Positions 11,643-28,435 of a stretch of 64,000 nt of DNA are shown piece by piece. Source of the stretch: an uncultured Thermoleophilia bacterium. Its GTDB lineage: Bacteria > Actinomycetota > Thermoleophilia > UBA2241. The stretch is taken from the NCBI GenBank assembly GCA_963702475.1, contig CAVPCT010000002.1:224001-288000 (forward strand), written 5' to 3'. The number at the start of each line of letters is the position of its first letter. Within the stretch, counting starts at the first letter, position 1. The notes under the pieces are model-generated. The model worked only from the letters and a program-made list of their open reading frames with translations. It was not told where the DNA came from and did no database searches. A program made the translations under genes and the position numbers.

Positions 11643-11643
<1 letters not shown>

Positions 11644-12560: not shown

Positions 12561-12583
12561 TGGCAGAGAGGAGATCGAGCCGT

Positions 12584-12855
12584 ATGGATGCTGAGGAGTT
12601 CGACAGGAAGTCCGATGACGGGCTCGAAGACGTCATGCAGTAGTGGACCTCTCCGGTGAGCGTCGACCCGATCGCGACACGAAGCGCGTGAGCGTCGATC
12701 TTCCCCCGTGGTTGGTCGATGCCCTCGATAACGAGGCTGCGCGCTTGGCGGTGACCCGGCAGTCTGTGATCGAAGTCCGGCTCTCGGAGAGGGTCGACCA
12801 GAACCGGCGCGCGCTGGAGGCCGAGGGCGCGCGCCGCAAGTCGCAGACTGGATAA
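12584..12855 (+). pseudogene. BrnA/CopG-type antitoxin, frameshifted at ~12641
   Basis: MDAEEFDRKSDDGLEDVMQ / VDLSGERRPDRDTKRVSVDLPPWLVDALDNEAARLAVTRQSVI; TAA stop lies within the attC inverse core GGATAAC. Confidence 0.7.
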
Positions 12856-12944
12856 CAGCGCTTCCTAGCTTCGTGGTACCTTCCTACGCAGAAGCCGGAA
12901 GCTGCAGCAGAGGTCTTCTCTCTACTGCACAAATGCAGTCGGGC
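12850..12944 (+). repeat. attC-like site
   Basis: GGATAAC...GTCGGGC; last ~57 nt nearly identical to 20698-20754. Confidence 0.65.
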
Positions 12945-13003
12945 ATCCGCTCGTCGACCCGTGGCGGAGTGCGGAGCGCGGGGTGGACGTTGCCCTCTGG
13001 CCG

Positions 13004-13031
13004 TTGCGGTTCCGCAGCTTCTGGTTATACT
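13004..13031 (+). promoter_or_regulatory. Sigma70-type promoter for a probably leaderless TA operon, with overlapping palindrome TATAC-N5-GTATG
   Basis: TTGCGG-16-TATACT; ATG at 13038 with no SD. Confidence 0.55.
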
Positions 13032-13037
13032 CACGGT

Positions 13038-13271
13038 ATGAAGACAGCGATCTCCATACCCGACGACCTGTTCGCCGACGCCGAGGAGCTGGCGCGGGAG
13101 CTGAAGAAGTCGCGCAGCCGCCTCTACGGTGACGCGGTGCGCGAGTACGTCGCCCGCCACTCCGCCGAAAGCGTCACCGAGGCCCTCGATCGCCTCTGCG
13201 ATGAGGTCGACTGCCGCAGCGATTTCGCCGGTGCCGCTGCGCACCGCACCCTGGAGCGCTCCGACTGGTGA
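13038..13271 (+). CDS. Ribbon-helix-helix antitoxin (MazE6/ChpI-like)
   Basis: MKTAISIPDDLFADAEELARELKKSRSRLY; overlaps toxin start (GTGA). Confidence 0.85.
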   Translation: MKTAISIPDDLFADAEELARELKKSRSRLYGDAVREYVARHSAESVTEALDRLCDEVDCRSDFAGAAAHRTLERSDW

Positions 13272-13609
13272 CCGCCCAGGGCGAGGTCTGGTGGGCCGAC
13301 CTGGCCGAGCCCTCCGGCTCCGAGCCCGGCTTCCGCCGCCCCGTCGTGGTCGTCCAGGGCGACGCCTTCAACCGCAGCCGTATCGGCACCGTCGTCTGCG
13401 TCGCGCTGACCAGCAACCTGCGCTGGGCCGACGCTCCCGGCAACGTCCTTCTCACCGCGCGCGCCACGGGCCTGCCCAAGGACTCGGTCGCCAACGTCTT
13501 GCAGCTCGTCACCCTCGACCGCGAGGCGCTGACCGAGCGCGTCGGCGCCCTGCCCGCGAAGAAGCTCGAGCTGGTGCTGCTCGGCATCGACATCGTCCTC
13601 GGGCGTTGA
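13268..13609 (+). CDS. mazF: PemK/MazF-family toxin
   Basis: QGEVWWADL..PSGSEPGFRRPVVVVQGDAFNRS, LTSNL, GLPKDSVAN. Confidence 0.92.
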   Translation: MTAQGEVWWADLAEPSGSEPGFRRPVVVVQGDAFNRSRIGTVVCVALTSNLRWADAPGNVLLTARATGLPKDSVANVLQLVTLDREALTERVGALPAKKLELVLLGIDIVLGR

Positions 13610-13616
13610 CGCGATT

Positions 13617-13703
13617 GCCCAACAAGCGGAGCAAGCTGGCTCGCCGAACCTCCGCGGCGCAGCGGAGCCGCGGCGCTCGCAGCTTCTCCGCGGCGCGTCA
13701 GCC
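13617..13703 (+). repeat. attC-like site
   Basis: GCCCAAC AAGCGGAGCAAGCTG...GCAGCTTCTCCGC...GTCAGCC. Confidence 0.8.
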
Positions 13704-13745
13704 CGAACCGATCCTGTTCACACACCCGTAAGGAGATCTTCCACA

Positions 13746-14492
13746 GTGGACATCCCGCGGATCTTCACCATCACTGAGAGTGCTCACCGCATCCACAACC
13801 CGATCACACCCGAGAAGCTCGCCACTCTCGGCGCGGCGCTGCGTCTGGAATCGGGGGCGCGAGTGCTCGACCTCGGCAGCGGTTCGGGGGAGATGCTGTG
13901 CACCTGGGCGCGCGATCACGGCGTCAGCGGCACCGGCATCGACATGAGCCGGTCGTTCACCGAGCAGGCGAGACGCCGTGCTGAAGAGCTCGGCGTCGCC
14001 GATCGAGTCAAGTTCATCCACGGCGATGCCGCCGGCTATGTCTCTGACGAGAAGGCCGGCGTGGCGGCCTGTCTCGGTGCCACCTGGATCGGCGGGGGAG
14101 TCGCCGGCACCATCGAGCTCCTGGCGCGCAGCCTGCGCCCCGGAGGGATCGTCCTCATCGGCGAGCCCTACTGGCGGCAGGTGCCGCCGACGGAAGACGT
14201 CGCCAAGGGGTGTCTTGCCGGCGCGATCTCCGACTTCCTCCTGCTTCCGGAGCTTCTCGCGTCGTTCGGCCACCTCGGCTACGACGTCGTCGAGATGGTC
14301 CTGGCCGACCAGGACGGCTGGGACAGATACGAGGCGGCCAAATGGCTCACCATGCGCCGCTGGCTTGAAGCCAATCCCGATGACGAGCTCGCGAAGGATG
14401 TTCGAGCCCAACTGACCGCGGAACCCGAGCGCTACGCCGCGTACACGCGTGACTACCTGGGCTGGGGTGTGTTCGCACTGATGCCGCGGTGA
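13746..14492 (+). CDS. Class I SAM-dependent methyltransferase (YjhP-like), cassette gene
   Basis: VLDLGSGSGE, GIDMS, FIHGDA, LRPGGIVLIGEPYW; AAGGAG RBS. Confidence 0.9.
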   Translation: MDIPRIFTITESAHRIHNPITPEKLATLGAALRLESGARVLDLGSGSGEMLCTWARDHGVSGTGIDMSRSFTEQARRRAEELGVADRVKFIHGDAAGYVSDEKAGVAACLGATWIGGGVAGTIELLARSLRPGGIVLIGEPYWRQVPPTEDVAKGCLAGAISDFLLLPELLASFGHLGYDVVEMVLADQDGWDRYEAAKWLTMRRWLEANPDDELAKDVRAQLTAEPERYAAYTRDYLGWGVFALMPR

Positions 14493-14572
14493 TGCGTTGG
14501 CGCATGAGGCGGATCGTCAACGCCGAAGGTCATTGGCGGTTGGTCTGGGCCCAGATTGGCTACACGCGGTCG

Positions 14573-14657
14573 GGCTGATGAAGGCATCAACCTGACGGCC
14601 AGAAGGTGGACTGACCCGAGGGCGCCTGCGCCGCAGGTCATGCCTACGACGTTAGGC
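14573..14657 (+). repeat. attC-like site
   Basis: GGCTGAT GAAGGCATCAACCTGACGGC...GCCGCAGGTCATGCCT...GTTAGGC. Confidence 0.8.
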
Positions 14658-14672
14658 CGACGAGACGCGGGG

Positions 14673-15182
14673 ATGGAGTCGATGGGTGACATTGATCGTG
14701 ACGTTCGCGAGCTTCGCGCAGCGCTCGCGATGGGCAGGATCCAGAACGCTTACGTCGCACTCGTCAAGTACATGTCTCGACTTCGCGCAAGGTACGCGGG
14801 CGAGCGAGGGGACCGCACAGTCTCCGGCCTCTATCAAGGCTACTTTGACATGACGTACTTCGCGCTCTTTCCGGATTGGTTCAGGGAGCGCGACTTGAAG
14901 GTGGCGGTGGTCTTCGACTACGCGAGCTTCTCTTTCCAGGCATGGTTGGCGGCCCGCAATCGCAGGGTGCAGAGGTCCTACTGGGAGCAACTGCGTGACG
15001 CTGGATACACCGAACACACGTTGGTCGAGCCGGGTGCCGGGATCGATGCCATCGTGATCTCGGTTCTTGCCGACGACTTCTCCCTTGCTGATGAGTCTGC
15101 TCTGACCAGGCGAATCGAGGCTGGTGTGGAGTCCTTCGAAGACGACATGCTTGCCGTGCTCAGTGAACTGAGCGGTGTGTGA
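14673..15182 (+). CDS. Conserved hypothetical (DUF7000-like), cassette gene
   Basis: GRIQNAY..L, GLYQGYFDMTYFALFP, LKVAVVF, WLAARNR; visibly more A/T-ending codons than host genes. Confidence 0.7.
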   Translation: MESMGDIDRDVRELRAALAMGRIQNAYVALVKYMSRLRARYAGERGDRTVSGLYQGYFDMTYFALFPDWFRERDLKVAVVFDYASFSFQAWLAARNRRVQRSYWEQLRDAGYTEHTLVEPGAGIDAIVISVLADDFSLADESALTRRIEAGVESFEDDMLAVLSELSGV

Positions 15183-15186
15183 CGCG

Positions 15187-15273
15187 GCCGAACAAGCAGG
15201 AAGCTGATGCGGCGCAGGCCTTCTTGACTCTGTGAGGCCTGCGCGCACAGCTCATCCGCATGGGACGTTGCGC
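15187..15273 (+). repeat. attC-like site
   Basis: GCCGAAC AAGCAGGAAGCTGATGCG...CGCACAGCTCATCCGC...GTTGCGC; inner hairpin GCGCAGGCCT/AGGCCTGCGC. Confidence 0.75.
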
Positions 15274-15399
15274 CGGGACTCGAGGGTCGCGGCGTGCGTG
15301 GACTCGTCTACGGCGCGTATCGCGTCTTCGCCTCCACGCTCGGGAGTTGCTGAGCTTCGAGCCCCGGCCGTGGCGGCCGGGTCTCGAAGGATGCCTCGG

Positions 15400-15800
15400 T
15401 CATCCCCAAGCTCCGAGGATCGCGCCCATGATCGTGAACGCGACCGCGTGGTAGCCGGCGTCGATGAACCACAGCGCCAATGGCCGGCGCTCGAAGAGGT
15501 ACGTGATCGCCATGCCGGCCGCCACCCAGGCGACGCCGGCCGCGGCGCCGGCGGCCGCGCCGAAGGCGACGCCCACATCGGCGCCGATGAAGAACGCAAG
15601 GGTCGTGGCTGCGACCACGGCGACGACCGCCGACAGGCCGAACACCACGGGGAGCTTGCGGGCGGCGAGGTCGGCGTCGCTGAGCGCCGCGGCGCACTGC
15701 CACGCTTTCGCGAAGGGCAGGGGTGAGTACAACATCCCACCCAGAAGGAACATCGACGCCGCCGCAGCGGCGATCGCGCCCCCGTCTCCACACCGCTCAT
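15400..15800 (-). pseudogene. DUF1761-family membrane protein, 5' end frameshifted
   Basis: FLLGGMLYSP..FAKAW, YLFERRPLALWFIDAGYH; upstream ATG 15800 out of frame. Confidence 0.6.
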
Positions 15801-15831
15801 CGCGCCTTCCGGGAAAGGCTCGCGTCCGAGG

Positions 15832-15898
15832 AAGTAAAAAACTCTTGACATGATGTCCGCATCGCTTTACAGTACGTCATGTCAAACATTCCTGACAT
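15832..15898 (+). promoter_or_regulatory. Sigma70 promoter overlapped by three ATGTCA-N8-TGACAT-type operators
   Basis: TTGACA 15845-15850, 17 nt, TACAGT 15868-15873; operators 15832-15851, 15853-15872, 15879-15898. Confidence 0.8.
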
Positions 15899-15947
15899 CA
15901 TGAGCAGCCCCCACAGTGGGGCGACTCGCAGCAAGGAGGCGATCCTG

Positions 15948-16400
15948 ATGCCGTTCGAAGAGAAGATCTCATGGGTCAACGCGGTGGTCATGGCCATCGT
16001 CCCGGTGGCCTATTTCGTGATCATGCTGGGCCGGCTGGGCGACACGCCGGCGGCCGACATCTCCTACCAGTGGCCGCTCCTCATCGCCATCGGGGCGTCG
16101 ATCGTCCTGACCATCGTCGGGTCGATCCTGGCCGGCATCGGCACCGGCATCTCGGCGGAACTGCGCGGCAGGTCCGCCTCCGCCGAGATCGATCGCAAGG
16201 ACGAGCGGGACAAGCAGATCAGCCGTCACGGCGACCTGATCGGCTTCTCCGTCTCCTCCTTCGGCATGGTCGGCGTGCTCGCCCTCACGATGCTCGAGTA
16301 CGAGTATTTCTGGATCGCCAGCGTCCTCTATCTCTCGTTCGTGGTCGGCACGCTGGTCGGATCGGTGGTCAAGATCGTCTCGTACCACCGGGGCTTCTGA
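15948..16400 (+). CDS. Four-TM membrane protein (DER-motif, DUF2178-like) paired with XRE regulator
   Basis: Hydrophobic helices flanking DRKDERDKQI; AAGGAGG RBS. Confidence 0.75.
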   Translation: MPFEEKISWVNAVVMAIVPVAYFVIMLGRLGDTPAADISYQWPLLIAIGASIVLTIVGSILAGIGTGISAELRGRSASAEIDRKDERDKQISRHGDLIGFSVSSFGMVGVLALTMLEYEYFWIASVLYLSFVVGTLVGSVVKIVSYHRGF

Positions 16401-16402
16401 CC

Positions 16403-16624
16403 ATGGGCAAGCCGACCAGAGTGACCAACCGCATCCGGGCGCTCCGCTTCGCCGCCGGCGAGATGACGCAGGCCGATCTCGCCGACAGGGTGGGCGTCAC
16501 GCGCCAGACCGTCATCGCCATCGAGCAGGGCCGGTACTCGCCGTCGCTCGAGATGGCCTTTCAGATCGCGCGGGTGTTCGACCTCCCGCTCGACGACGTG
16601 TTCCAGTATCCGAAGGAGAAGTGA
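16403..16624 (+). CDS. Small XRE/Cro-family HTH regulator
   Basis: NRIRALR...MTQADLADRVGVTRQTVIAIEQGRYSPSLEMAFQIARVF. Confidence 0.92.
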   Translation: MGKPTRVTNRIRALRFAAGEMTQADLADRVGVTRQTVIAIEQGRYSPSLEMAFQIARVFDLPLDDVFQYPKEK

Positions 16625-17376
16625 TGGACACCTCCACAATCCGCGCCGAGCCCACGGTGCTGCTCCTCGGCGGCACCGGGCGCACCGGCGGGCGCGTCCT
16701 GACGCAGCTTCTGGGCCGCGGCATCCGTTTGCGCGCCCTGGTCCGGTCGGCCGAGCGGCTCCCGGCGGGCGTCGCGGGCGACCCGCTGCTGACGATCGTC
16801 GAGGCGGACCTGCTCTCCCTGAGCGCCGAACAGGTCAAGGAGCAGGTCGACGGCTGCGACGTCGTGATCTCCTGTCTCGGCCACACCATCAGCGCGAAGG
16901 GGGTCTTCGGGCGGCCGCGCGACCTCGTCACGCGGTCGGTGGAGCGGGTGTACCGGGCGACTTGGGAGCTGCGGCCTGCGCGGCCCGTGAAGCTCATCCT
17001 CATGAGCAGCGTCTCCGTGAACCGCCCGGGAGGCCTGGACACGCGGCGCGGGTGGTTCCAGCGCGCCGCCCTCTGGCTGCTGCGCGGCCTCGTGCCTCCG
17101 GCGCGGGACAACCAGCGCGCCGCCGACTTCCTCCACGACGTCGTCGAGGCGGCCGATCCCTCTGCGGAGTGGGTGGTCGTCCGGCCCGACACGCTGAAGG
17201 ACGGCGACGTGACCGAGTACGCGCTGCACGAGGGTCTCGTGGACGGCATGTTCCGCCCCGGCGAGACCAACAGGGCCAACGTCGCCCATTTCATGTGCGA
17301 GCTGGCGAGCGACGTCGGGGCGTGGGCGGCCTGGCAGGGCAAGCTCCCCGTGATCGTGAACGCATCGCCTGAGTGA
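16624..17376 (+). CDS. Atypical SDR / NAD(P)H-binding protein
   Basis: LLLGGTGRTGG, ALVRS, WVVVRP, RANVAHFM. Confidence 0.85.
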   Translation: MDTSTIRAEPTVLLLGGTGRTGGRVLTQLLGRGIRLRALVRSAERLPAGVAGDPLLTIVEADLLSLSAEQVKEQVDGCDVVISCLGHTISAKGVFGRPRDLVTRSVERVYRATWELRPARPVKLILMSSVSVNRPGGLDTRRGWFQRAALWLLRGLVPPARDNQRAADFLHDVVEAADPSAEWVVVRPDTLKDGDVTEYALHEGLVDGMFRPGETNRANVAHFMCELASDVGAWAAWQGKLPVIVNASPE

Positions 17377-17563
17377 CCCCGCCGCGGCGGTGACGGCCGC
17401 CGCGCGCAGCCCCATGGGCATGGCCGACGCCTGACGTCGCCGTGCTCGCCTCGAGGTCGTGTGTGGTGCACGACCGACCCATCCAACGACGAGCCTGGGC
17501 TTGCCATGCGCTGCTTCGGCCCGTCACGGCCGCCGGCGCGAGACCAGCCGGCAGCGGGAGAAG

Positions 17564-19894
17564 ATGACAGTGACGCAGAGCGAGAACAAGCAGAACAGGC
17601 GGGGCGCCGGAGCGGGCTCCAGCCTCACGGAACGCCTGGCGCGCACCAGCGCCCTCCACCCGTGGCGCACCATCGGCATCTGGACGGTGCTCATCGTCCT
17701 CGCCGTGGTCGCGGTCGGTACGCTGCTCGGCAGCGGCCTGACCTCGGACATCAAGTTCCGTGCCGACAAGCCGGACAGCCTGGTCGGCCAGGAGCTCCTC
17801 GAGCAGCGTCTCACCGGGCCGCGGCAGATCACCGACTTCGTCATCGTGCGCTCGGCCTCGGCCACAGTCGACGACCCCGCATTCAAAGCCTACGTCGACG
17901 ACCTCACCCGCCGGATCACCGGCCTGGGCCCGGCGGTCGTCAGGAGCGTGTCCACCTACTACCAGACCGGTGACCCCACCGTCGTCTCGAGAGACGAGCA
18001 CGCGACCCTTATCCCCGTGGTCATGGCCGGCACCATCGACGACGCCGTGAAGAACGCGGGCAAGCTGCACACGCTCGTCGTGGCGGCCCAGGGCCGGGGC
18101 TTCACCGTCGCGCTGACCGGCGACGCGAGCATCATGGAGATGTTCATGACGCTCGCCGAGAAGGACCTGGCGCGCGGCGAGATCCTCGGCGTCCCCGCCG
18201 CGCTGATCGTGCTCCTGATCGTCTTCGGCGCGGTGCTCGCGGCGTGCATGCCGCTGCTGATGAGCATAATCAGCATCGTCCTCGCGCTGGCCCTGACCGC
18301 GCTCATCGGCCAGGTCTACCCGATGACCGCCTTCGCGCTGAACATCCTCACCATGATGGGCCTGGCGGTGGGCATCGACTACACACTCTTCGTGATCAGC
18401 CGCTACCGCGAGGAGCGCGCCCGAGGCCTCGCGAAGATCGACGCCATCGCCGCGACCGGCGCCACCGCCAATCGCGCCATCTTCTTCAGCGGCATGACCG
18501 TGGTGCTCGCCATGGCCGGCATGGTCATCATCCCGCTCGACGTCATGATCAGCATGGGCATCGGCGTGATGCTGGTGGTGTTCACCACGCTGGTGACGGC
18601 GCTCATCGCCCTGCCGGCGCTGCTGAGCCTGCTCGGGGACCGCGTCGACGCCCTCCGCGTGCCCTTCATCCGCCGCCGCGCCACCCGCCGTCTGAGCGGC
18701 GGCTCCGGCATCTGGGAGCGCCTGGCGCACAGCATCATGCGCCGCCCGGTCGTCTGGCTCACTATCGCCGTCGTGGCGCTGCTCGTGGCGGCCGCCCCCG
18801 TGATGATGATGAAGAGCGGCGACAGCACCGCGAGCGCAGCCCATCTTCCCGACAGTGAGTACGCGAAGCAGGGCTGGGACATCCTGGACCGGGACTTCAC
18901 CCTGGGCAAGGCCAATCCGCTGCTGATCGTGATCGACGGGCAGGCGGCCTTTCCGCAGGTGAAGCGGGCCGTGGAGGACCTGCAGGCGGCCATGAAGAGC
19001 GATGGCGACTTCGGCCCGGCCCGGGTCACAACGAACGAGGCCGGGGACCTCACCCTCATCACCACGACGCTCGCCGGCGATCCTGCGGGCGAGGCCACCC
19101 AGTCCGTCGTGAAGCGCCTGCGCGAGGACATCGTGCCGCGGGCCGCGGGCGGACTGGCCGCGAAGGTGTACGTCGCCGGCACCACCGCGGGCGTCGTCGA
19201 CTACCTCGGCTTCTTCGGCGCCTGGATGCCGGTGGCGATGGCGGTGATCCTGAGCCTGAGCTTCGTGCTCCTGCTGGTCGCCTTCCGCTCCGTCGTCATC
19301 CCGGCGCAGGCGATCCTCATGAACCTGCTGTCGGTCGGAGCCGCCTACGGCCTCATGGTGCTGGTCTTCCAGAAGGGTGTCGGCGCCGGCCTCCTTGGCC
19401 TCACCCAGGTCGACACCATCGAGGCCTGGGTGCCGCTCTTCCTCTTCAGCCTGCTGTTCGGCCTCTCCATGGACTACCAGGTGTTCCTGCTCAGCCGCAT
19501 CAAGGAGCGCTACGACGAGACCGGCGACACCCGCGAGGCGGTCGCCCACGGCCTCGGCCGCACCGCCGGCATCATCACCGGCGCGGCCGCCATCATGGTG
19601 TGCGTGTTCGGCGGCATGGCCACCGGCGAGCTGGTGATGTTCCAGCAGATGGGCTTCGGCCTCGCCGTGGCGGTCTTCCTCGACGCCACGGTGGTGCGCA
19701 CCATCATCGTGCCCGCCGCCATGGAGCTGCTCGGAGACTGGAACTGGTACCTGCCGCGCCGGCTGCAGTGGATCCCCGATGTCAGTGTGGAGGGGCGCAG
19801 CCACGAGCCGGCGGCGCCGAAGGAGCCCCGTCACCCCCGGCACGAGCCCGGCATCACCGTCCCGCGGCCTTCTCTCGGAGGCGCGGAGCACTAG
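17564..19894 (+). CDS. MMPL-family (RND) transporter
   Basis: GLAVGIDYTLFVISRYREE, LFGLSMDYQVFLLSRIKE, DATVVRTIIVPA. Confidence 0.93.
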   Translation: MTVTQSENKQNRRGAGAGSSLTERLARTSALHPWRTIGIWTVLIVLAVVAVGTLLGSGLTSDIKFRADKPDSLVGQELLEQRLTGPRQITDFVIVRSASATVDDPAFKAYVDDLTRRITGLGPAVVRSVSTYYQTGDPTVVSRDEHATLIPVVMAGTIDDAVKNAGKLHTLVVAAQGRGFTVALTGDASIMEMFMTLAEKDLARGEILGVPAALIVLLIVFGAVLAACMPLLMSIISIVLALALTALIGQVYPMTAFALNILTMMGLAVGIDYTLFVISRYREERARGLAKIDAIAATGATANRAIFFSGMTVVLAMAGMVIIPLDVMISMGIGVMLVVFTTLVTALIALPALLSLLGDRVDALRVPFIRRRATRRLSGGSGIWERLAHSIMRRPVVWLTIAVVALLVAAAPVMMMKSGDSTASAAHLPDSEYAKQGWDILDRDFTLGKANPLLIVIDGQAAFPQVKRAVEDLQAAMKSDGDFGPARVTTNEAGDLTLITTTLAGDPAGEATQSVVKRLREDIVPRAAGGLAAKVYVAGTTAGVVDYLGFFGAWMPVAMAVILSLSFVLLLVAFRSVVIPAQAILMNLLSVGAAYGLMVLVFQKGVGAGLLGLTQVDTIEAWVPLFLFSLLFGLSMDYQVFLLSRIKERYDETGDTREAVAHGLGRTAGIITGAAAIMVCVFGGMATGELVMFQQMGFGLAVAVFLDATVVRTIIVPAAMELLGDWNWYLPRRLQWIPDVSVEGRSHEPAAPKEPRHPRHEPGITVPRPSLGGAEH

Positions 19895-19908
19895 CTCGGA
19901 CGAGGGCA

Positions 19909-19944
19909 GAAGGGGCGGGGCGCCCGCGGGCGCCCCGCCCCTTC
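19909..19944. terminator. Perfect GC-rich hairpin between convergent mmpL-like and osmC-like genes
   Basis: GAAGGGGCGGGGCGCC-CGCG-GGCGCCCCGCCCCTTC. Confidence 0.8.
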
Positions 19945-19991
19945 CGTCGTTCTCTGAGGCGGCCACCCGGCCGGCGTGACCGCGGCGAGGC

Positions 19992-20680: not shown

Positions 20681-20754
20681 GGGGAGCACTGTCTTATGCA
20701 GAAGTCGACAGCTGCAGCAGAGGTCTCCTCTCTACTGCAGAAATGCAGTCAGCC
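20681..20754 (+). repeat. attC-like site (same subtype as 12850-12944)
   Basis: TTATGCAGAAG...CTACTGCAGAAATGCA GTCAGCC. Confidence 0.6.
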
Positions 20755-20766
20755 GGAGGCCGCTCG

Positions 20767-21306: not shown

Positions 21307-21367
21307 CGCGACAGCTCCTCGGCTATCCTGAAAGCGCTCGGCGCGCAGGTTTGCCGCTCTTGAGGCG
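21284..21367 (+). repeat. attC-like site, degenerate core
   Basis: GTCTGAC AGGCGCTTCAACCTGACGCG...CGCGCAGGTTTGCCGC..TTGAGGC. Confidence 0.65.
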
Positions 21368-21481
21368 GAGCTGTCGATAGCCGAGATCGCGTCTATCGAA
21401 GAAGTCATGCCTCCTGACGTTGCCGCTGGGACGCGCTACTCTGAAGCCTCGATGCGGGGACTGGATCTGTGATCGTGCGCC

Positions 21482-21541
21482 GCCGAACAAAGGGTTGCAG
21501 CCGACGTTGCTCCGCAACGCGGCTGACTCCTAACGCTACCG
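21482..21541 (+). repeat. Short (~60 bp) 59-base-element-type attC
   Basis: GCCGAAC AAAGGGTTGCAGCCGACGTTGC TCC GCAACGCGGCTGACTCCTAAC GCTACCG. Confidence 0.75.
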
Positions 21542-21616
21542 GTACAGCAGGGACGTGGGGCCAGTGTCCACCACTCGGGTGTTGCGTCCGTCCGCATCGC
21601 GGGGGAGACTGAAGCC

Positions 21617-21847
21617 ATGCGCAACACCGACCTCGATATCTCCAAGCTCTCAGTCGCCGAGCGCATCCAGCTCGCGGAGGACCTCTGGGACAGCGTCGCC
21701 GCCGAGACCGGTGACCTGCCGCTCACCGAGGCGCAGGCCGCCGAGCTCGACCGCCGCCTCGCCGAGCTCGAGCGCGACCCCGAGGCCGGCGAGAGCTGGC
21801 CGGTCGTGCGCGCGCGCATCGAGCAGCGCCTCGACAGGGCCGGCTGA
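21617..21847 (+). CDS. Putative addiction-module antitoxin
   Basis: LSVAERIQLAEDLWDSV...ELDRRL...GESWPVVRARI. Confidence 0.88.
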   Translation: MRNTDLDISKLSVAERIQLAEDLWDSVAAETGDLPLTEAQAAELDRRLAELERDPEAGESWPVVRARIEQRLDRAG

Positions 21848-21850
21848 GGC

Positions 21851-22146
21851 GTGCGCCTCGTCGTCCGCGAGGCGGCCGAGGCGGACATCGCCGAAGCCGC
21901 CCGTTGGTACGAGCAGCGCTCACCTGGCCTCGGATCGGAGTTCCTGCGCGCCGTCGACGTCACCCTCGCCGAGACCACGCGCATGCCCGAGCGTTACCCG
22001 GTCGTCCGCGGCAGAGCTCGCCGTGCTCTGCTCCGCCGTTTCCCCTAAGCGGTCTACTTTGTCGCCACCCCGGACCTCATCAGCGTCTTCGCTCGCCTGC
22101 ACGCGCGACGCGACCCGAGGCATTGGCGGGAGCGCAGCGAAGCTGA
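21851..22146 (+). pseudogene. RelE/ParE-family toxin with premature stop (22046-22048) and downstream frameshift
   Basis: AEADIAEAARWYEQRSPGLGSEFL...RRALLRRFP*AVYFV...HARRDPRHW. Confidence 0.8.
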
Positions 22147-22180
22147 CCGCTAATCCGAACGTGCGTCGGGCGGGGTAGAG

Positions 22181-22576
22181 GTGGTCACGTCACTGCGACC
22201 CGTCGTGGAGGGCGACCAGGCGAGCATCCAGCGCTGGGCAGGCCTCGCCGCCGGCCACATGTCGCGCACGCATCGTCTCGATGACGCTGCCGATCGCCAC
22301 GCTCCCGCTGAGGGGCTCTGCTGGTACATCCTCGACGCTGACGGCCGCGACGTCGGCACCGTCTGGGTCGAACTGCCCCCCGGCTCAGGCGAAGCGGTCC
22401 TCGGCATCTTCCTCTGCGATGCCTCGCATCTCGGTCGCGGCATCGGCGCCGCCGCCGTCGAGCGCGCCATCGCCTGCTACCGCCGGGTCGGCTTCACGGT
22501 CACCGGCAGCGGCACCAGGTCGCTGCCCTCCGGCGAGACCGTCCCCTACTACAGCATGGTCCTCCCGCCGTGCTGA
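22181..22576 (+). CDS. GNAT acetyltransferase, probably with internal deletion
   Basis: LGIFL.DASHLGRGIG directly joined to RAIACYRRVGF. Confidence 0.6.
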   Translation: MVTSLRPVVEGDQASIQRWAGLAAGHMSRTHRLDDAADRHAPAEGLCWYILDADGRDVGTVWVELPPGSGEAVLGIFLCDASHLGRGIGAAAVERAIACYRRVGFTVTGSGTRSLPSGETVPYYSMVLPPC

Positions 22577-22797
22577 CCCCCATCTCGCCGACGTTCCCCG
22601 ACCTGCCTCACAAGCGCGAGGTCGAGCACGCGCTCACGCAGGTCGAGACGTTTCCCGAGGCGGCGGAGCCGCTCCGCGACCGGGTGAGCCGGCGCCACTT
22701 GCACACGTTCCCCTGCGCGCTGCGCACCGATGAGGTCCGCGTCCTCGCGGTGGCGTATCAGAGGCGCCGGCCGTTCTACTGGGAGGATCGCCGGTGA
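22570..22797 (+). pseudogene. RelE/ParE toxin C-terminal remnant
   Basis: RRHLHTFPC...VRVLAVAYQRRRPFYWEDR. Confidence 0.65.
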
Positions 22798-22801
22798 GTG
22801 C

Positions 22802-22891
22802 GGCTGACAAGCGGATCAAGCCGGCTCGCCGCAGCGCCGGCGGCCTCACGGGAGGCCGGCGCGCTCGCAGCTTATGCGCGGTGCGCTAGCC
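22802..22891 (+). repeat. attC-like site
   Basis: GGCTGAC AAGCGGATCAAGCCGGCTCGC...GCGCTCGCAGCTTATGCGCGGTGC GCTAGCC. Confidence 0.8.
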
Positions 22892-22896
22892 AGACG

Positions 22897-23340
22897 ATGG
22901 CGGTGCGCTTGCAGACCCGGGCGGCAACCCATGACGACACACCGTTTCTGGTGCAGCTTGCGTGCGAGGCGTACCGCGACGTGGTCACCCTCCAGTTCGG
23001 CAGCTGGAACGAGCGCGAGCAGGCCACTCGCTTCGCGGCCAAGGTCGCGCGGCTGCCGTTCGAGGTCGGTGTGCTCGCGGACCGGCCGATCGCTACGGTC
23101 TCGTCGTCGGTCCACGCCGATCGCGTCGTCCTGAACGAACTGCTCGTACTGCCGGAGTTCCAGAACCGCGGGTTCGGCAGCGAACTGCTCGGGCGCGAGA
23201 TCCAGCGCGCTCTGCAGCTGGGCCTCCCACTGCGGCTGCACACGCTCCGGCGAAACCGGGCGTTGCGCCTCTTCGAGCGTCATGGTCTCATCGTCACGGC
23301 ACAGGGAGAGGTCTTCATCGACATGGAACGTGCTGGCTGA
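22897..23340 (+). CDS. GNAT acetyltransferase, cassette gene
   Basis: VLPEFQNRGFGSELL, NRALRLFERHG; starts 6 nt after attC core, stop inside the next inverse core. Confidence 0.85.
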   Translation: MAVRLQTRAATHDDTPFLVQLACEAYRDVVTLQFGSWNEREQATRFAAKVARLPFEVGVLADRPIATVSSSVHADRVVLNELLVLPEFQNRGFGSELLGREIQRALQLGLPLRLHTLRRNRALRLFERHGLIVTAQGEVFIDMERAG

Positions 23341-23424
23341 CATGCGGAGAGAGCTGGCTCGCCGCAGCGCCGACGCTGTCATCAGAAGTCGGCGCGCTCG
23401 CAGCTTGTCCGCGGTGCGTTTGAT
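23335..23424 (+). repeat. attC-like site
   Basis: GGCTGAC ATGCGGAGAGAGCTGGCTCGC...GCGCTCGCAGCTTGTCCGCGGTGC GTTTGAT. Confidence 0.8.
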
Positions 23425-23470
23425 CTGGCGACGCTGACGAATCCCCAGACGCCTGGCCCGGAGGTAGCTG

Positions 23471-24067
23471 GTGCACCTTGTCCTTGATAACCAGCGAGAG
23501 GCAGCGGCCGAGACGCTCGCGGAGGCGTTCAGAAATGATCCGCTGCTCCAGGTTCTCGCGCCCGACCCACGACGGCGGGTGGCAGTCGGTCGTTGGTTCT
23601 TTCGGGTCAGCATCGATTACGGGATGCGATGGGGCCGCGTCTGGGGCGCTGACGACGCCGCGGCGGTCTCCATCTGGCTGCCGCCGGGCAGTCGCTGGAG
23701 CGCCCTGCGCTCGTTGCGCGTCGGGATGGCCGCCTTCCCGTTCCGGGTGGGGCCAGGACCGATGCTGGACGTCATACGAGTCGCCCCTGCTCTCGAACGA
23801 CTCCACCGTTCGGTTCGTGGGCCGCACTGGTATCTCATGGCGATCGGTACGAGACCGTCGAGGCAGGGCGAAGGTTTGGGCAGCGCGCTCGTCGCGGCTG
23901 GTACGTCGCAAGCGGACCTCGCAGGGCTGCCCTGCTACCTTGAGACGTCTACGCAGAGCGCTGTCGACTTCTATGTCAAGCGGGGGTTCGAGGTCGTTGG
24001 CCAGGAGGATCTCAACGGGCACATCCTGTTCGGAATGGTGCGCCCTACGGCATCGTTGCTCATCTGA
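23471..24067 (+). CDS. GNAT acetyltransferase, cassette gene
   Basis: LAEAFRNDP, PHWYLMAIGTRPSRQGEGLGSAL, CYLETS, FYVKRGF; GGAGG RBS. Confidence 0.9.
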   Translation: MHLVLDNQREAAAETLAEAFRNDPLLQVLAPDPRRRVAVGRWFFRVSIDYGMRWGRVWGADDAAAVSIWLPPGSRWSALRSLRVGMAAFPFRVGPGPMLDVIRVAPALERLHRSVRGPHWYLMAIGTRPSRQGEGLGSALVAAGTSQADLAGLPCYLETSTQSAVDFYVKRGFEVVGQEDLNGHILFGMVRPTASLLI

Positions 24068-24145
24068 CCGGCGCCTCAAGCTGACGTCCAGAAGGTCGTA
24101 GCGACGTGAAGGCGCACGGGGCAGCTCATCGGTCACGTGTTGGTC
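24062..24145 (+). repeat. attC-like site
   Basis: ATCTGAC CGGCGCCTCAAGCTGAC...GCAGCTCATCGG...GTTGGTC. Confidence 0.65.
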
Positions 24146-24214
24146 ACAGCCTTCTCCACTGGTTGCGAGGGTACGTTAGTGGTACCGTTGTCAGTAGCAC
24201 AGGAGGTAGCGTCA

Positions 24215-24490
24215 ATGGTATCAGTACCTGACATCGTCCCCATCACCGACCTCCGCCAGGACGCCTCGGGCGTGATCAAGCGCGCGTCCGACACGCAGCA
24301 GCCGGTGTTCATCACGCAGCGCGGCCGCGCCACCGCCGTCGTCGTCAGCGCCAGGGCCTACGAGCGCACGCAGCACGAGCTCGAGGTCCTGCGCCTGCTC
24401 GCACGCGGCGAAGCCGAGATCGAGGCCGGCTCAGGCCACACGCTCGCCGACGTGCTGGCCGAGGCCGACGGGCTGCTCGGCAGGCCGTGA
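24215..24490 (+). CDS. Phd/YefM-family antitoxin
   Basis: IVPITDLRQDAS, PVFITQRGRATAVVVS; AGGAGG RBS. Confidence 0.9.
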   Translation: MVSVPDIVPITDLRQDASGVIKRASDTQQPVFITQRGRATAVVVSARAYERTQHELEVLRLLARGEAEIEAGSGHTLADVLAEADGLLGRP

Positions 24491-24846
24491 GCCGCAGGGT
24501 CCTCTTCACCCCCGCCGCCCGTGAGCAGTTCCTTGCGGCGCTCGCCTACACCGCTGCCGCAGACCCGGCGGCAGCGCGGAGTCTGCGCGATCGCGCCGCG
24601 GCCTCGCTCTCCCGCCTCGCCGACTACCCGGGGTCGGGGCGCGCGCTGCCCGAGTTCCCCGACCTGTCGTTCCGTGCGGTCATCGTGCCACCGTACCGCT
24701 TCTTCTACCGCGTCATGGACGACGCGGTCTGGGTGGTCGCGGCGTGGCACTCGGCCAGCTCCCTGGCGAGCCGACGGACGTTGGGCGTGACTGACAAGCG
24801 GAGAAGCTGGCTCGCAGGCAGCTCTACGGTACACTTCGTAGCGTGA
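24487..24846 (+). CDS. RelE/ParE-family toxin, C-terminus apparently frameshifted into the attC
   Basis: LADYPGSGRALPEFP, PPYRFFYRV, VVAAWH; alternate frame QLPGEPTDVGRD* ends in the inverse core at 24792-24794. Confidence 0.75.
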   Translation: MSRRVLFTPAAREQFLAALAYTAAADPAAARSLRDRAAASLSRLADYPGSGRALPEFPDLSFRAVIVPPYRFFYRVMDDAVWVVAAWHSASSLASRRTLGVTDKRRSWLAGSSTVHFVA

Positions 24847-24877
24847 GCGCTGGCAGCTTGTCCGCGAGGCGTTAGGC
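24789..24877 (+). repeat. attC-like site
   Basis: GACTGAC AAGCGGAGAAGCTGGCTCGC...GCGCTGGCAGCTTGTCCGCGAGGC GTTAGGC. Confidence 0.8.
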
Positions 24878-24908
24878 GAACGAGCAGCGCTCAACAGGGG
24901 GCGAGTGC

Positions 24909-25379
24909 ATGCTGCCGCAAGCGGGACAGGGTCCATGGTGGGCGGCGTTGACGGTGTGGGGTGTCGTCAACTCCGTCAACGTGCTTCAGGCCCTCGGGTT
25001 CCTCTCCAGGGTTCGTTCCGGGGCCATGACGCTCAATCACCGTCTGGGCTACGTGATGATCGCACTCGCCGCGCCGACTCTGATCGCGCTGGTCGGTTAC
25101 GTGAAGTCCCGGGCGGGAGTCCTGACCTATCTCGGTCCGCTCGCGTACCTCGGTTTCGTGGCGTTGATGCTGGCGGTCGACTACATCGCTCCGGTGGAGT
25201 TCCGCTCACCGCCTCGCTACGTCATCCTTGTGCCCTATCTCGCGCTCTTCTTCGGCGCGATCCTCTTGATGGGCCTCCCGATGTACGAGCTGAACCGCTC
25301 GTACTGGCTGGTGACCGTCGTGACCAGCGCGTTGCTCCTTGCCTCCATGGTCGCGGCCATGCGTAAGGGAGTGGGCTGA
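24909..25379 (+). CDS. Hypothetical multi-pass membrane protein, cassette gene
   Basis: About 5 hydrophobic segments; fills the space between two attC-like sites. Confidence 0.65.
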   Translation: MLPQAGQGPWWAALTVWGVVNSVNVLQALGFLSRVRSGAMTLNHRLGYVMIALAAPTLIALVGYVKSRAGVLTYLGPLAYLGFVALMLAVDYIAPVEFRSPPRYVILVPYLALFFGAILLMGLPMYELNRSYWLVTVVTSALLLASMVAAMRKGVG

Positions 25380-25401
25380 CGAGACGCGCGGGTGGATCGT
25401 C

Positions 25402-25491
25402 GCCTGACAAGCGCATCGAGTTGGCTCGCAGTAAGCTCACCGCTGGACTGCATCGCGTGAGCGCTCGCAGCGTGTCCGCGGCGCGTTCGAC
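25402..25491 (+). repeat. attC-like site
   Basis: GCCTGAC AAGCGCATCGAGTTGGCTCGC...GCGCTCGCAGCGTGTCCGCGGCGC GTTCGAC. Confidence 0.8.
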
Positions 25492-25542
25492 GCACGCCGT
25501 TTCTTTGCGGGCGGAGATGCAGCGAGAGGCGGGGAGGCCTGG

Positions 25543-25881
25543 ATGGCATCGGAATTGAGCTTCGTCGAGTTCGTCTGCGACCAGCTTCGTGACGCCGGCG
25601 AGCCGTCGTTTCGCAAGATGTTCGGCGAGTATGTGATCCACCTTGACGGCAAAGTCGTCGCGCTCGTGTGCGACGACCGCCTCTTCGTCAAGCAGACCGC
25701 CGGCGGGCGAGCCTTCCTCGGCGATCCGGTCGAAGCCCCTCCGTATCCCGGGGCCAAGCCGTACTTCCTGATCGGTGACGGACTCGATGATCATGCGTGG
25801 TTGAGCGCGCTGGTTCGCGTGACCACAGAGGAGCTTCCGCCGCCCAAGCCCAAGCGCGCGAGGCGTCCGCGCTCGGAGTAG
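25543..25881 (+). CDS. TfoX N-terminal domain protein, cassette gene
   Basis: RKMFGEY, ALVCDDRLFVKQT, PPYPGAKPYF; GGAGG RBS. Confidence 0.9.
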   Translation: MASELSFVEFVCDQLRDAGEPSFRKMFGEYVIHLDGKVVALVCDDRLFVKQTAGGRAFLGDPVEAPPYPGAKPYFLIGDGLDDHAWLSALVRVTTEELPPPKPKRARRPRSE

Positions 25882-25946
25882 CCGGCCTCGGACTGTCGCC
25901 ACGTCACGGGCAATCGCATCGAGCATCCGTCGCCCGACATGCCGGC

Positions 25947-25975
25947 GTCGAACAAGGGCGTCAACCTGACAACCA
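25947..25975 (+). repeat. attC-like left arm only
   Basis: GTCGAAC AAGGGCGTCAACCTGAC; complementary to GTTCGACGC at 25485. Confidence 0.65.
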
Positions 25976-26195
25976 CGCCGTAGACTGCGGAAGAGAAGTG
26001 CGTCGAACCCCGCCGCCCCGGGCGGCGCGCGCCCAACCAGGTGGTCGCACTTCCCTGCCCGATGCTCTGATGCGGCAGCGCTCCGCGCATCGGCGCGGAT
26101 CCCCGCGAACCTCCGTCTGCACGCGAGCGTCCCACGGGCAAGGGCACAGCCGGCGCAGCCGTTTCCGGCGTGCTCACTCCAGAAGGGGGACCGTG

Positions 26196-26936
26196 ATGGC
26201 ACTCAGGAACAGGTACGCTACCGCCGGACTCGTCGCGGCTCTCGCCCTGGCGCTCGGCGCGCTTGCGGGATGCGGCACTACCGCCACCACTGCCACGTCC
26301 ACCCAGGCAGGCGCCGCCGCCGGCACCGTGACCGCCTCCGGCATGGGCACCGCGCAGGCCGCGCCGGACACGGCCGAGATGTCCTTCGGCGTGACCACGA
26401 TGGCGTCCGACGCAAAGTCGGCACTCGACGACGCCTCCGCGGTCGCCGAGCAGATCGCCTCCGCGGTCAAGAAGCAGGGCGTCGCCGCCGAGGACATCCA
26501 GACGCGCGACGTCAGCGTCTACCCGCAGACGCTAGACCAGGACGGCAAGCAGGTCATCAGCGGCTACCAGGCCTCGCTCAGCGTGCAGGTCAAGGTGCGC
26601 GACATCGCCAAGCTCGGCGAGGTCATCTCGGCGGCGAACGCCGCCGGCGCCAACAGCATCAGTGGACCCGCGTTCACCATCGCCGATCCGGCGCCCGTCC
26701 GCGCGAAGGCGATCGACGAGGCCGTGGCCGACGCCCGCAAGAGCGCCGAGGCGATGGCGAAGGCGGCCGGCAAGAGCGTCGGAGAGGTGCTGAGCATGAG
26801 CTCAGGCGACGTGGGCCTGGTCTCCGTCCCGATGTACGGAGGGGGCGGCGACATGGCCGAGGCGGCCAAAGTGCCCATCGAGCCGGGCCAGCTCGACGTC
26901 ACGGCGAACGTGGTCGTGGTCTTCGAGCTCAAGTAG
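26196..26936 (+). CDS. SIMPL (DUF541) domain lipoprotein
   Basis: Lipobox LAGC; ASGMGTAQAAPDTA, DIQT, GANSISGP, PIEPGQLDVTANV. Confidence 0.88.
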   Translation: MALRNRYATAGLVAALALALGALAGCGTTATTATSTQAGAAAGTVTASGMGTAQAAPDTAEMSFGVTTMASDAKSALDDASAVAEQIASAVKKQGVAAEDIQTRDVSVYPQTLDQDGKQVISGYQASLSVQVKVRDIAKLGEVISAANAAGANSISGPAFTIADPAPVRAKAIDEAVADARKSAEAMAKAAGKSVGEVLSMSSGDVGLVSVPMYGGGGDMAEAAKVPIEPGQLDVTANVVVVFELK

Positions 26937-27204
26937 CCTTGCAGGGCTGAAGCGGGGCAAGCGCTCCGGTTCCTCACGACCCGTCGACACGAGGGCGGCC
27001 ACGGTGCCGCCCTCCTTGGCTGTTGGGCCACGGGCAACGGCGAGCGACTGTGCCTGCTCGCCGCCGTGGGACGGGCCGGCGGTGTCTCCTCACCTGCCCG
27101 ACGCTAAGCGAACGCAGGAGCAGGGAACGAGTCTGTCGACATCATCTGGATGCGCGACCCTCGGACTTCTCACCTGCGGCGCGCCTGACCTGAAGGCGGC
27201 CCTC

Positions 27205-27574
27205 GTGGAGCTCGGTGCGTTCCCGGTGAGTCTCAACGTGCGGGACATCGCAGCGTCCGCGCGTTCTACGAGAGGCTCGGTTTCACTCCCGTCATGGGTG
27301 ATGCGGATCAGGGGTGGCTCATCATGCGCAACGCCCGGACCACCCTCGGGTTGTTCCGGGCGATGCTCGAGAGCACCACCCTCACCTGTGACCCCGGCTG
27401 GGACGCAGAGGCGAACGAACTCAGCTCGTTCGCCGACGTCCGCGAGATCCAGCGCGACCTGAAGGCTGCCGGAGTCCAACTCGACAGCGAGGTGGATGAG
27501 TCGGGGCAGGGCCGGGAAGCCTCGTGCTCCACGACCCCGACAGCACCCCGATCCTTGTCGACCAGCACGTGTAG
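27205..27574 (+). pseudogene. VOC/glyoxalase-family gene, multiply frameshifted
   Basis: ELGAFPVSLNVRDIAAS / FYERLGF, QGWLIM, PGWD..ANELSSFADVREIQ / ILVDQHV*. Confidence 0.75.
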
Positions 27575-27613
27575 CGCGCGGGTCGGGTGGACTTCGCGGT
27601 CGTGCCGCGCGTC

Positions 27614-27690
27614 GCCCAACAGGCGCGTCGACCTGATGCCGGCGCTGAGGAGGCGCTGGCCGAGCAGCTGGTGCGCACCAGGCCATGGAG
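27614..27690 (+). repeat. Degenerate attC-like site
   Basis: GCCCAAC AGGCGCGTCGACCTGATGC...GCACCAGGCCA; GCGTCGCCCAAC roughly complements GCTAAGCGAACGC at 27103. Confidence 0.5.
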
Positions 27691-27775
27691 GGAGTCGCAG
27701 CAGAGGGGTGGCCGGTCCGTCCGACAAGCGGATGCGTAGCGTCCATGCACCTCTGCGATGTCGAGAGGAGCGCTG

Positions 27776-28174
27776 ATGGCTCATACCTGCCGAACCGGTG
27801 GATGCCTCTGCGGGGCGGTCCGGCTTGAGATCTCGGGCGAGCCGTATCGAGTGGGCATTTGCCACTGTCTGGATTGCCGCAAGTATCACGGCGCGGTCTT
27901 CAGCACCTTCGCCGTCTTTCCAGCCGATGCAGTCGCGGTCACAGGCGAAACGAGGAGCTATCGCGACCGGCATTTCTGTCCTGTCTGCGGAGCCTCGGTG
28001 TTCAGCTACTCCGCGGACGAGATCGAGGTCCCTCTGGGCGTCTTCGACGTGCCAGATCAGATGAGGCCGACCTACGAGATCTGGACCAGGCGTCGCGAGG
28101 GCTGGCTGCCTCCCTTCGCTGTCGCCCGCCGCTTCGACGGCGATCGGGAGGGCACCGGAAGGGCGGAGCCCTGA
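27776..28174 (+). CDS. GFA (CENP-V) family Zn-binding protein
   Basis: TGGCLCGAVR, CHCLDCRK, RHFCPVCG; GAGGAG RBS. Confidence 0.92.
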   Translation: MAHTCRTGGCLCGAVRLEISGEPYRVGICHCLDCRKYHGAVFSTFAVFPADAVAVTGETRSYRDRHFCPVCGASVFSYSADEIEVPLGVFDVPDQMRPTYEIWTRRREGWLPPFAVARRFDGDREGTGRAEP

Positions 28175-28435
28175 CAAGACCACTGCGTCGATGGAGAGGG
28201 TGGAACGGGGCTTCGTCTGGGCGACGTTGCAGGGGAGAGGCTCGGTGGCCACGGCCGCATGGAGTCGGTCGTCGACGCCCGCGCCAGCCCCATGGCTCCG
28301 ATCACCGCCACGAACAAGACGTCTTCGGGAGCCGTCAGGGAGCGATCTCATCCGCCGTCCGCGACGGCGGCTGCCTTCGCCGCGACGAGGCGCTGGGTGG
28401 TTCCAGTTCGGTGCTCGCGCGGCGTGAGCGGTCGA

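Follow-up and report, generated by a model that had tools for sequence, protein, structure and literature searches.

Clusters of attC sites lacking an integron integrase (CALIN) were defined by Cury et al. 2016 (PMC4889954), and integrons with an inverted-integrase layout, in which the integrase gene intI points toward its cassettes, have also been described (PMC13323075). Actinobacteria have been set apart in this literature. The passages of PMC4889954 that deal with the phylum describe all of its genomes as lacking complete integrons, those of PMC9024848 mention 'a few CALIN' and no complete integron, and both suggest an unknown mechanism that hinders integron establishment there. In the corresponding section of a 2026 soil meta-omics study a 'virtual absence' of integrons in Actinomycetota is reported (PMC13323075), and the list of integron-bearing phyla given in PMC9668308 omits Actinobacteria. 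Here, we analysed a window of 64,000 nucleotides from the assembly of an uncultured Thermoleophilia bacterium (GCA_963702475.1, contig CAVPCT010000002.1, positions 224,001 to 288,000), in which a stretch at about 12.8-28.2 kb had been proposed, from a sequence-only reading, to be an integron-type cassette array lacking its integrase in an actinobacterial lineage not noted for integrons. The attC sites, the missing intI and the host labels all support this proposal, and the literature cited above, as far as its passages on the phylum go, agrees on the standing of the lineage. Our search found no published account of Thermoleophilia integrons; supplementary taxon tables lay outside it and could list them. 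We conclude that the stretch is very probably a genuine gene-cassette array without integrase, that is, a CALIN with attI remnants, which is decaying in a Thermoleophilia host. The integron system is of a known type; the unexpected part is the host.

Twelve full attC sites had been claimed, nine of which were confirmed (span 13617-25491). The remaining three are a marginal site at 21482 and two elements, at 12850 and 20681, that proved to be of attI type. As had also been claimed, every supported site lies on the + strand. When folded, the nine sites form long imperfect hairpins on either strand, and repeat families of 33-84 nt were found at 13617, 22802, 23335, 24789 and 25402. RNAalifold recovered only 10 pairs from a raw MAFFT alignment of the nine sites (alignment A1) because the variable centre aligns poorly, and the structure was then given by hand. 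With this structure 79% of the cells in A1 were paired, compared with 27-45% when the partner was slid, and 8 pairs had changed on both sides; the covariation score was reached in none of 500 shuffles.

A covariance model built from the nine sites (R1) and run with filters off returned from the window those sites and a weaker match at 27609 (18.9 bits), all on the + strand and no others; the same set only was obtained from the whole assembly, where scoring covered 150 of the 7557 first-look candidates. A second model (R2), trained on 150 sites taken from relatives' intI-adjacent arrays, gave scores of 80.5 bits for attC6 (22802-22891), 77.2 for attC1 (13617-13703), 70.6 for attC7 (23335-23424), 62.7 for attC9 (24789-24877), 52.6 for attC10 (25402-25491), 49.8 for attC2 (14573-14657), 28.2 for attC3 (15187-15273), 23.7 for attC4 (21284-21371; 62.4 with R1) and 20.1 for attC8 (24062-24145; 60 with R1), and its best match off the locus in the whole genome reached 22.8 bits. 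The site at 21482 (probable short attC5, 21482-21543; R2 start 21477) scored 15.3 bits (E 0.03) and coincides with a cassette boundary seen in relatives. Three half sites had been proposed as well. The one at 25947 stands: its R'' (GTCGAAC) is complementary at 7/7 positions to the R' before it (GTTCGAC) and its 5' arm is consensus-like, with no score from either model. The one at 27614 (27609-27697) is weak, being matched by R1 only and unlisted by R2 at E<=1, and the candidate at 31941 was dropped, with no support from R1 or R2. With nine co-oriented and clustered attC sites and no integrase nearby, the locus exceeds the at least two such sites by which a CALIN is recognized.

The attC layout described by the sequence-only reading is preserved in its R''-L''...L'-R' order, though the cores in the window are eroded. 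In relatives the cores read G-Y-C-Y-A-A-C and G-T-T-R-G-R-C, i.e. the canonical RYYYAAC/GTTRRRY, and the attC family is therefore not exotic. Sites in relatives carry a 12-bp stem (96.7% of cells paired) that is split by one bulged C in 146 of 150 sites. On the bottom strand the base is a G, which is bulged in 99 of 146 minimum-free-energy folds; the bulged C is present in six of the nine window sites in A1. We take the conserved bulged G to be equivalent to the extrahelical G of classical attC, and a base predicted by folding to mark the recombinogenic strand would thus be present in this family. Stop codons had been noticed within the inverse core, and they do lie in R'' at 23338-23340 and 24065-24067; further open reading frames (ORFs) terminate within their own attC.

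GC-rich hairpins that follow genes also resemble terminators, and one could regard them as ordinary intergenic palindromes, either terminators or repeats akin to repetitive extragenic palindromes (REP) or miniature inverted-repeat transposable elements (MITE), with no link to integrons. The restriction of R1 matches to one locus and one strand excludes a genome-wide REP/MITE family, and a second property of the sites is left without explanation by palindromes of any kind. Integron recombination takes place at G|TT, and as a consequence every R' within an array is a chimera: the six bases behind its G come from the following cassette, to whose own R'' they are complementary. For the window sites, complementarity between the four variable R'' bases and the R' of the preceding site was seen at 34 of 40 positions, compared with 19 of 36 for the R' of the same site, and only 2 of 20,000 permutations do as well. 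Among the 150 sites of ten loci in relatives, the match between R'' and the preceding R' was perfect in 103 of 139 adjacent pairs, as opposed to 17 of 149 when R'' was compared with the own R', 6 of 139 when it was compared with the R' of the site that follows, and 9% at random; the observed mean complementarity was reached in 0 of 5000 permutations. Complementarity to the previous site is the trace that cassette recombination at G|TT leaves behind. Since relatives also have the same sites next to bona fide intI genes, and since these sites delimit units that move between arrays, as described below, we give the palindrome explanation practically no credence.

The same attC type was found throughout the relatives of the host. 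R1 matched 66 of 121 sampled genomes, 64 of them among the 72 within the family, and in the genus, for which 54 species-level genomes were searched, the attC type was present in 47 of 53 genomes. Ten loci fetched from relatives contained 175 R1 matches in 164 kb, with a median attC-to-attC spacing of 599 bp. In six genomes (G375, G359, G221, G316, G296 and G206) attC matches begin 1-2 kb from intI and on the same strand. Integrases were searched with the integron-integrase model TIGR02249 (cut-off 265 bits; strong match, E<=1e-30). Strong matches were obtained in 28 of 48 genomes of the genus, most at 435-490 bits, and in 45 of 79 of the family; 53 of 401 genomes of the class exceeded the cut-off, and none of 14 control genomes had a match. 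One relative's IntI (P0001) scored 459 bits over the full-length model, is 54.7% identical to IntI1 and can be aligned along its entire length with the Vibrio integron integrase 2a3v (phmmer, E 7e-91), the IntI-specific region included. In all six relatives inspected, intI lies upstream of the cassettes and on the same strand as these, which is the feature of the inverted-integrase type.

The position of intI in several relatives, directly downstream of pntB, corresponds to that of the window array. The window pntB (NAD(P) transhydrogenase beta; 10258..11643, + strand; PF02233, 589 bits) is a conserved chromosomal anchor; the gene that precedes intI in L112, L113, L115, L117 and L118 matches it with 82-84% identity at the DNA level. 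At the relatives' intI position, the window carries a 286-aa ORF (11783..12643, +) that gave only a weak HD-domain match and no NCBIfam family. A homologue of this ORF directly follows pntB in L011 (74% over 140 aa); the ORF was set aside as a clue to the loss of intI, this one pntB-adjacent homologue being all that was found. The statement that the window lacks intI was borne out, and could be extended to the assembly: TIGR02249 gave no match over its cut-off, the best one (80.9 bits) being Xer-like, and tblastn with a relative's IntI returned Xer-like matches only, at 30-42% identity. An intI pseudogene in the window was considered and rejected, the same query giving only matches with E>1 there. 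An IntI beside the array, as in a complete integron, is absent from this genome and present in relatives. Among congeners and other class members, intI was split in two frames or contained internal stops in G206 C8, G331 C3, G226 C3, G178 C1 and G193 C5, which suggests that integrase decay is frequent in the lineage; the arrays beside these broken genes still score well.

The elements at 12850 and 20681 were rejected as attC sites, as their repeats match an element that lies between intI and the first cassette in relatives. A 59-nt repeat, 88% identical, occurs at 12882 and 20692 and belongs to two putative attI copies: attI-A (12866..12938, +), the candidate primary insertion site, which ends at the crossover G|TCGGGC with the G at 12938, and attI-B (20692..20748, +), a 5'-shortened second copy that ends at G|TCAGCC with the G at 20748. 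Window positions 12708-12945 share 85-89% identity with the sequence that adjoins the 3' end of intI in L117 and L116; at 12938 the homology switches to the MazEF cassette, which in L117 is located mid-array. Between the intI stop and the first attC of six relatives we found one conserved element, clear in five and diverged in L112, which ends ...GCA|GTTRRRY directly before the first cassette; the 7-mer after this junction is complementary to the R'' of the first attC at 7/7 positions in three of the six loci and at 5-6/7 in the rest. A putative attI site that ends at the crossover and lies between intI and the first cassette is accordingly a feature of these integrons. The element adjoins intI in G296 (94% match), G339, G226 and G206. 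Shortened second copies were likewise detected in G339 (C25:4017-4074) and G206 (C12:253058-253112), possibly also in G266; in G339 the second attI follows the same OsmC block as in the window (91% identical) and is itself followed by an array, and in G206 a second array begins ~1.8 kb downstream of the shortened attI. The two-platform layout is thus shared with other genomes and no local accident. In those that have IntI, the second attI would be served in trans.

Both attI copies end ATGCAG|T (12933-12938 and 20743-20748), and their ATG is in frame with the ORF of the first cassette in both sub-arrays (12873-13271 and 20743-21306). An ATG at the attI end was also seen in four of the six relatives inspected, and attI may supply the first cassette with a start codon. 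Upstream of attI-A lies a gene for a brnA-type antitoxin (12643..12855, +) that is 5'-truncated relative to its profile (NF047399, 63.4 bits with a cut-off of 60, positions 20-70 of 70). Its 3' part is found between intI and attI in L116 and L117, with homology from 12708. Such a brnT/brnA remnant is present between intI and attI in some genomes and not in L112-L115, and the leader region is hence itself variable.

The units between the attC sites behave as independent cassettes. Copies of the MazEF, methyltransferase, 207-aa, GNAT and Phd/ParE cassettes, with 83-93% identity, stand among different neighbours in the genomes of relatives, and homology between arrays breaks at attC sites. Conserved gene order in relatives would have spoken against an integron; the order of the cassettes is not conserved, and at least five window cassettes occur in other contexts, which shows that they have been independently mobile. 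The sequence-only reading had placed all of them in a single array. It is an integron array, but 5.4 kb of non-cassette genes divide it into two parts.

The first sub-array starts behind attI-A with cassette 1 (12939..13703, +), which holds an antitoxin and a MazF toxin gene (13268-13609; PemK/MazF, PF02452), ends with attC1 and is found again, with 88-93% identity, at different places in the arrays of L117, L121 and L116. Cassette 2 (13704..14657, +; attC2) encodes an S-adenosylmethionine methyltransferase (13746-14492; Methyltransf_31/25) and recurs at 83-90% in L113, L118, L119 and L121; cassette 3 (14658..15273, +; attC3) encodes a DUF7000 protein (about 14700-15182; PF22526). The block that follows (15274..20691) contains genes for an XRE regulator, an NAD(P)-binding protein, an MMPL transporter and, on the - strand, OsmC, all assigned by Pfam; neither R1 nor R2 found an attC inside it.

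The second sub-array begins behind attI-B with cassette 4 (20749..21371, +), a GNAT acetyltransferase gene (PF00583) with attC4, the R' of which is degenerate (GCGGAGC). A short unit without ORF (21372..21543, +) ends with the probable attC5, and homology to a cassette of L115 and L119 starts at 21533-21537, just past this site. The cassette concerned (21544..22170, +) encodes a 207-aa hypothetical protein (21555-22178) and is 88-89% identical to its counterpart in these two loci. It is followed by a GNAT cassette (22171..22620, +; gene 22181-22576) that matches L112 14863-15390 at 83-91% and by the 3' remnant of a toxin-like gene (22621..22891, +; attC6). L121 has a longer gene, the 3' part of which is 86% identical to this remnant. 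Two further GNAT cassettes (both +, PF00583) come next, one at 22892..23424 (ATG at 22897, end at 23340 with the TGA in R''; attC7) and one at 23425..24145 (gene 23471-24067, TGA stop in R''; attC8). A cassette with a Phd/YefM antitoxin and a ParE toxin (24146..24877, +; PF02604, PF05016; attC9) recurs at 88-90% in L112, L114, L115 and L117; in L117 it directly precedes the MazEF cassette, unlike in the window. Thereafter lie the cassette of a 156-aa hypothetical protein without Pfam match (24878..25491, +; attC10) and that of a TfoX_N protein (25492..26060, end approximate, +; gene 25543-25881; PF04993). The attC of the latter is clear in its 5' half (from 25947) and degenerate in its 3' half, and TfoX homologues adjoin attC matches in other genomes, e.g. 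G271 C7. A decayed tail (26061..28180, +) follows with a SIMPL/DUF541 gene, a 152-aa ORF and a GFA gene (27758-28174), identified with Pfam. The cargo had been called typical of cassettes, and Pfam does find such families: MazF, a methyltransferase, DUF7000, four GNATs, Phd/ParE, TfoX_N, SIMPL and GFA. The GC content of the 12.8-28.2 kb stretch is 0.65-0.70, compared with 0.71-0.75 across most of the remaining window, and the GC content at third codon positions of its small genes is 0.68-0.96 (mostly 0.68-0.86), compared with 0.98 for pntB.

The tail contains the 5' fragment of an attC at ~27717-27735, with GACAAGCGG at 27723. Homologues of its SIMPL gene (82-87%) occur at many sites in congeners, some of them <=9 kb downstream of intI (G134). 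A stretch of ~90 nt at 27643-27733 recurs at 78-85% beside attC matches in several congeners (e.g. G211 C4:255836-255928) and has one more copy in its own genome (C3:539510-539601), beside a weak R2 match (22.8 bits); this stretch may represent either another junction element or the end of a lone cassette. Just beyond the array, a gene on the - strand (28436-31750) with 273-bp tandem repeats of 71-96% identity encodes a 1104-aa protein with Ig-like (I-set/Ig_3), lamin-tail and He_PIG domains. No tRNA was found in a scan of the window, and the locus is hence not a tRNA-anchored island. An Rfam scan of the window at gathering thresholds detected RNase P alone (bacterial class A RNA at 47720-48107, +; 269 bits) and no attC family.

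Our data are best explained if the stretch is what remains of a sedentary, inverted-integrase chromosomal integron, belonging to a family native to a Thermoleophilia genus and seated downstream of pntB. In the intact form, IntI, a tyrosine recombinase, would act on the folded bottom strand of the ~90-nt attC and recombine it at G|TT with attI or a second attC, by which promoterless cassettes with a single gene or a toxin-antitoxin pair would be inserted, excised and reshuffled. In the window the integrase gene would have been lost, and another ORF now lies between pntB and the truncated brnA-attI leader. What is left over would be two attI copies, each heading a co-oriented sub-array (3 and at least 8 cassettes), with the 5.4-kb block of ordinary genes between them, and without the integrase this array would be frozen and decaying.

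Signs of decay are seen throughout the window copy. The AAC of R'' is kept in 2 of 8 window sites (2/9; Fisher p 5e-7 on 2/9) and the GTT of R' in 5 of 8, compared with 142 of 150 each in intI-adjacent arrays; the commonest core change is TAAC to TGAC, which preserves the stop codon. At ~22150-22170 an attC is reduced to a scar in which R'' and R' alone remain: CGCTAA and GTCGGGC stand almost side by side in the window, in place of the complete attC of ~100 nt present in L115 and L112. At ~22607-22620 a stub of the first ~12 nt of an attC is joined to internal sequence of the toxin gene, of which L121 has a longer version. The low R2 scores of four window sites were counted as decay too, and beyond 26.06 kb there are weak or partial sites only. 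These observations indicate that the array is eroding after integrase loss, and this loss would have been old enough to explain the erosion.

Several points weigh against this interpretation or restrict it. The training sites of R2 had been found with R1, and R2 is not fully independent of the window. With 79 nt as the query, BLAST at E<=0.001 located the attI element in no more than 9 of the 53 congeners, which we ascribe to the low sensitivity of a short query, and the L112 version of the element is much diverged. The attI elements are assigned a function by their position, conservation and junction, and recombination activity of the attC and attI sites is a prediction from sequence. The membership of the tail beyond 26.06 kb in the array is uncertain. 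No intI was found in G261, G271 and G140, yet these keep AAC in 9/10, 16/18 and 8/9 sites, and only G002 (1/4) and G191 (0/2) resemble the window; the G271 array stops at a contig end, and kin in this comparison are not independent. The idea that core erosion marks intI loss was consequently retained only in part. GAC cores are sometimes matched by a GTC in the preceding R' (attC1/attC2, attI-B/attC4), and some of them may be tolerated variants rather than damage.

The assembly (4.3 Mb) is 93.8% complete, and intI could conceivably sit in unassembled DNA. From there, the missing ~6%, or from a plasmid or a co-resident element, an integrase might act in trans on an array that is still active. 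This would agree with the largely intact crossover footprint (34/40), with the compensation of some GAC/GTC core changes across the two ends of a cassette and with the congeners G339 and G206, which have IntI and hold a second attI-headed array without an intI of its own; such arrays make action in trans plausible in the family. However, no IntI-like sequence was found in the 4.3 Mb, the syntenic intI position is held by another ORF with no remnant of the gene, and attC scars, a stub fused into a truncated gene and the degenerate R' of attC4 are unlike a maintained array. We therefore regard continued activity as improbable and favour loss of the integrase.

Thermoleophilia is a class of Actinomycetota, and the labels of the closest relatives agree with the actinobacterial host that had been proposed. 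The nearest relatives of PntB (80-86%) and of Zwf (72-79%, after which identity drops to about 52%) are metagenome-assembled genomes (MAGs) labelled Thermoleophilia, as is G375 of the same genus. A pentose-phosphate cluster at 38660-44871 comprises zwf, a gene resembling that of phosphogluconate dehydrogenase and a transaldolase gene of the mycobacterial equivalog type, and is consistent with an actinobacterial host. Mis-binning of the contig or mislabelling of the lineage, so that the host would not be an actinobacterium, might be suspected from the 6.5% contamination of the assembly, from close relatives that are all MAGs, none of those found being cultured, and from the next best PntB relatives, which are Gammaproteobacteria. 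In addition, two MAG records labelled delta proteobacterium or Deltaproteobacteria (L132 and L133) contain IntI that is 88-94% identical to the Thermoleophilia IntI, in one case at the end of a 968-kb contig; their labels reflect either mislabelling, mis-binning or recent transfer of the integron. A contig of at least 288 kb with a uniform GC content of ~0.70-0.75, the agreement of PntB and Zwf, the transaldolase, the attC type in 47 of 53 congeners and the location of several integrons on contigs of 0.1-2 Mb all speak against such an error, which we consider very unlikely, and we retain the Thermoleophilia assignment. More distant IntI sequences (63-68%) were found in L130, L150, L157, L172, L175 and L177, from MAGs labelled Coriobacteriia, Slackia and other Actinomycetota; judged from IntI matches alone, further actinobacterial classes may possess integron integrases.

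The locus and its relatives combine canonical IntI, attI and attC with dozens of cassettes at a fixed chromosomal site in one actinobacterial class, and the supposed barrier to integrons is hence not phylum-wide. Which host factors permit integrons can now be tested by comparing Thermoleophilia with other Actinomycetota. This attC and integron family appears to be common in one Thermoleophilia family. Going further, we lean slightly towards the view that large sedentary integrons are native to this family of soil Thermoleophilia and vertically maintained across it, in a two-platform layout with the second attI served in trans, and that the window represents the end state after integrase loss. 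If this holds, the 'absence of integrons' from Actinobacteria would be a sampling artefact of cultured genomes, with no barrier at the level of the phylum. The window would also provide a natural example of how an array decays once its integrase is gone, through core drift, attC scars and truncated genes, with the AAC to GAC drift amounting to TAA stops turning into TGA in a 70% GC genome. Moreover, high-GC cassettes with many GNATs and toxin-antitoxin pairs are added to the known cassette metagenome.

Compared with known systems, the window shares with CALIN a cluster of co-oriented attC sites, small promoterless cassettes, a cargo of GNAT, methyltransferase and toxin-antitoxin genes and the lack of intI. 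It differs in its eroded cores, with GAC in place of AAC, and in having kept two attI copies and a syntenic leader, which identifies it as a once complete integron in decay rather than a stray cluster. The relatives resemble the inverted-integrase integrons, of which Treponema denticola is an example and which were reportedly grouped by Boucher et al. 2007: intI is upstream and co-oriented, attI lies 3' of intI, the chromosomal locus is fixed and the arrays are large and homogeneous, with about 20-30+ similar attC sites. The Thermoleophilia host, the brnT/brnA remnant in some genomes and the shortened second attI that heads an array are different, as is, in the window, the absence of the integrase. 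Finally, the relatives share with the Vibrio cholerae superintegron and its integrase VchIntIA (2a3v) an IntI that aligns over its full length, and attC sites that form one homogeneous family, as do the Vibrio cholerae repeats, with toxin-antitoxin cassettes interspersed. The IntI is clearly diverged from that of Vibrio, however, intI has the opposite orientation, the GC content of the host is very high (about 70%) and the arrays are much smaller.

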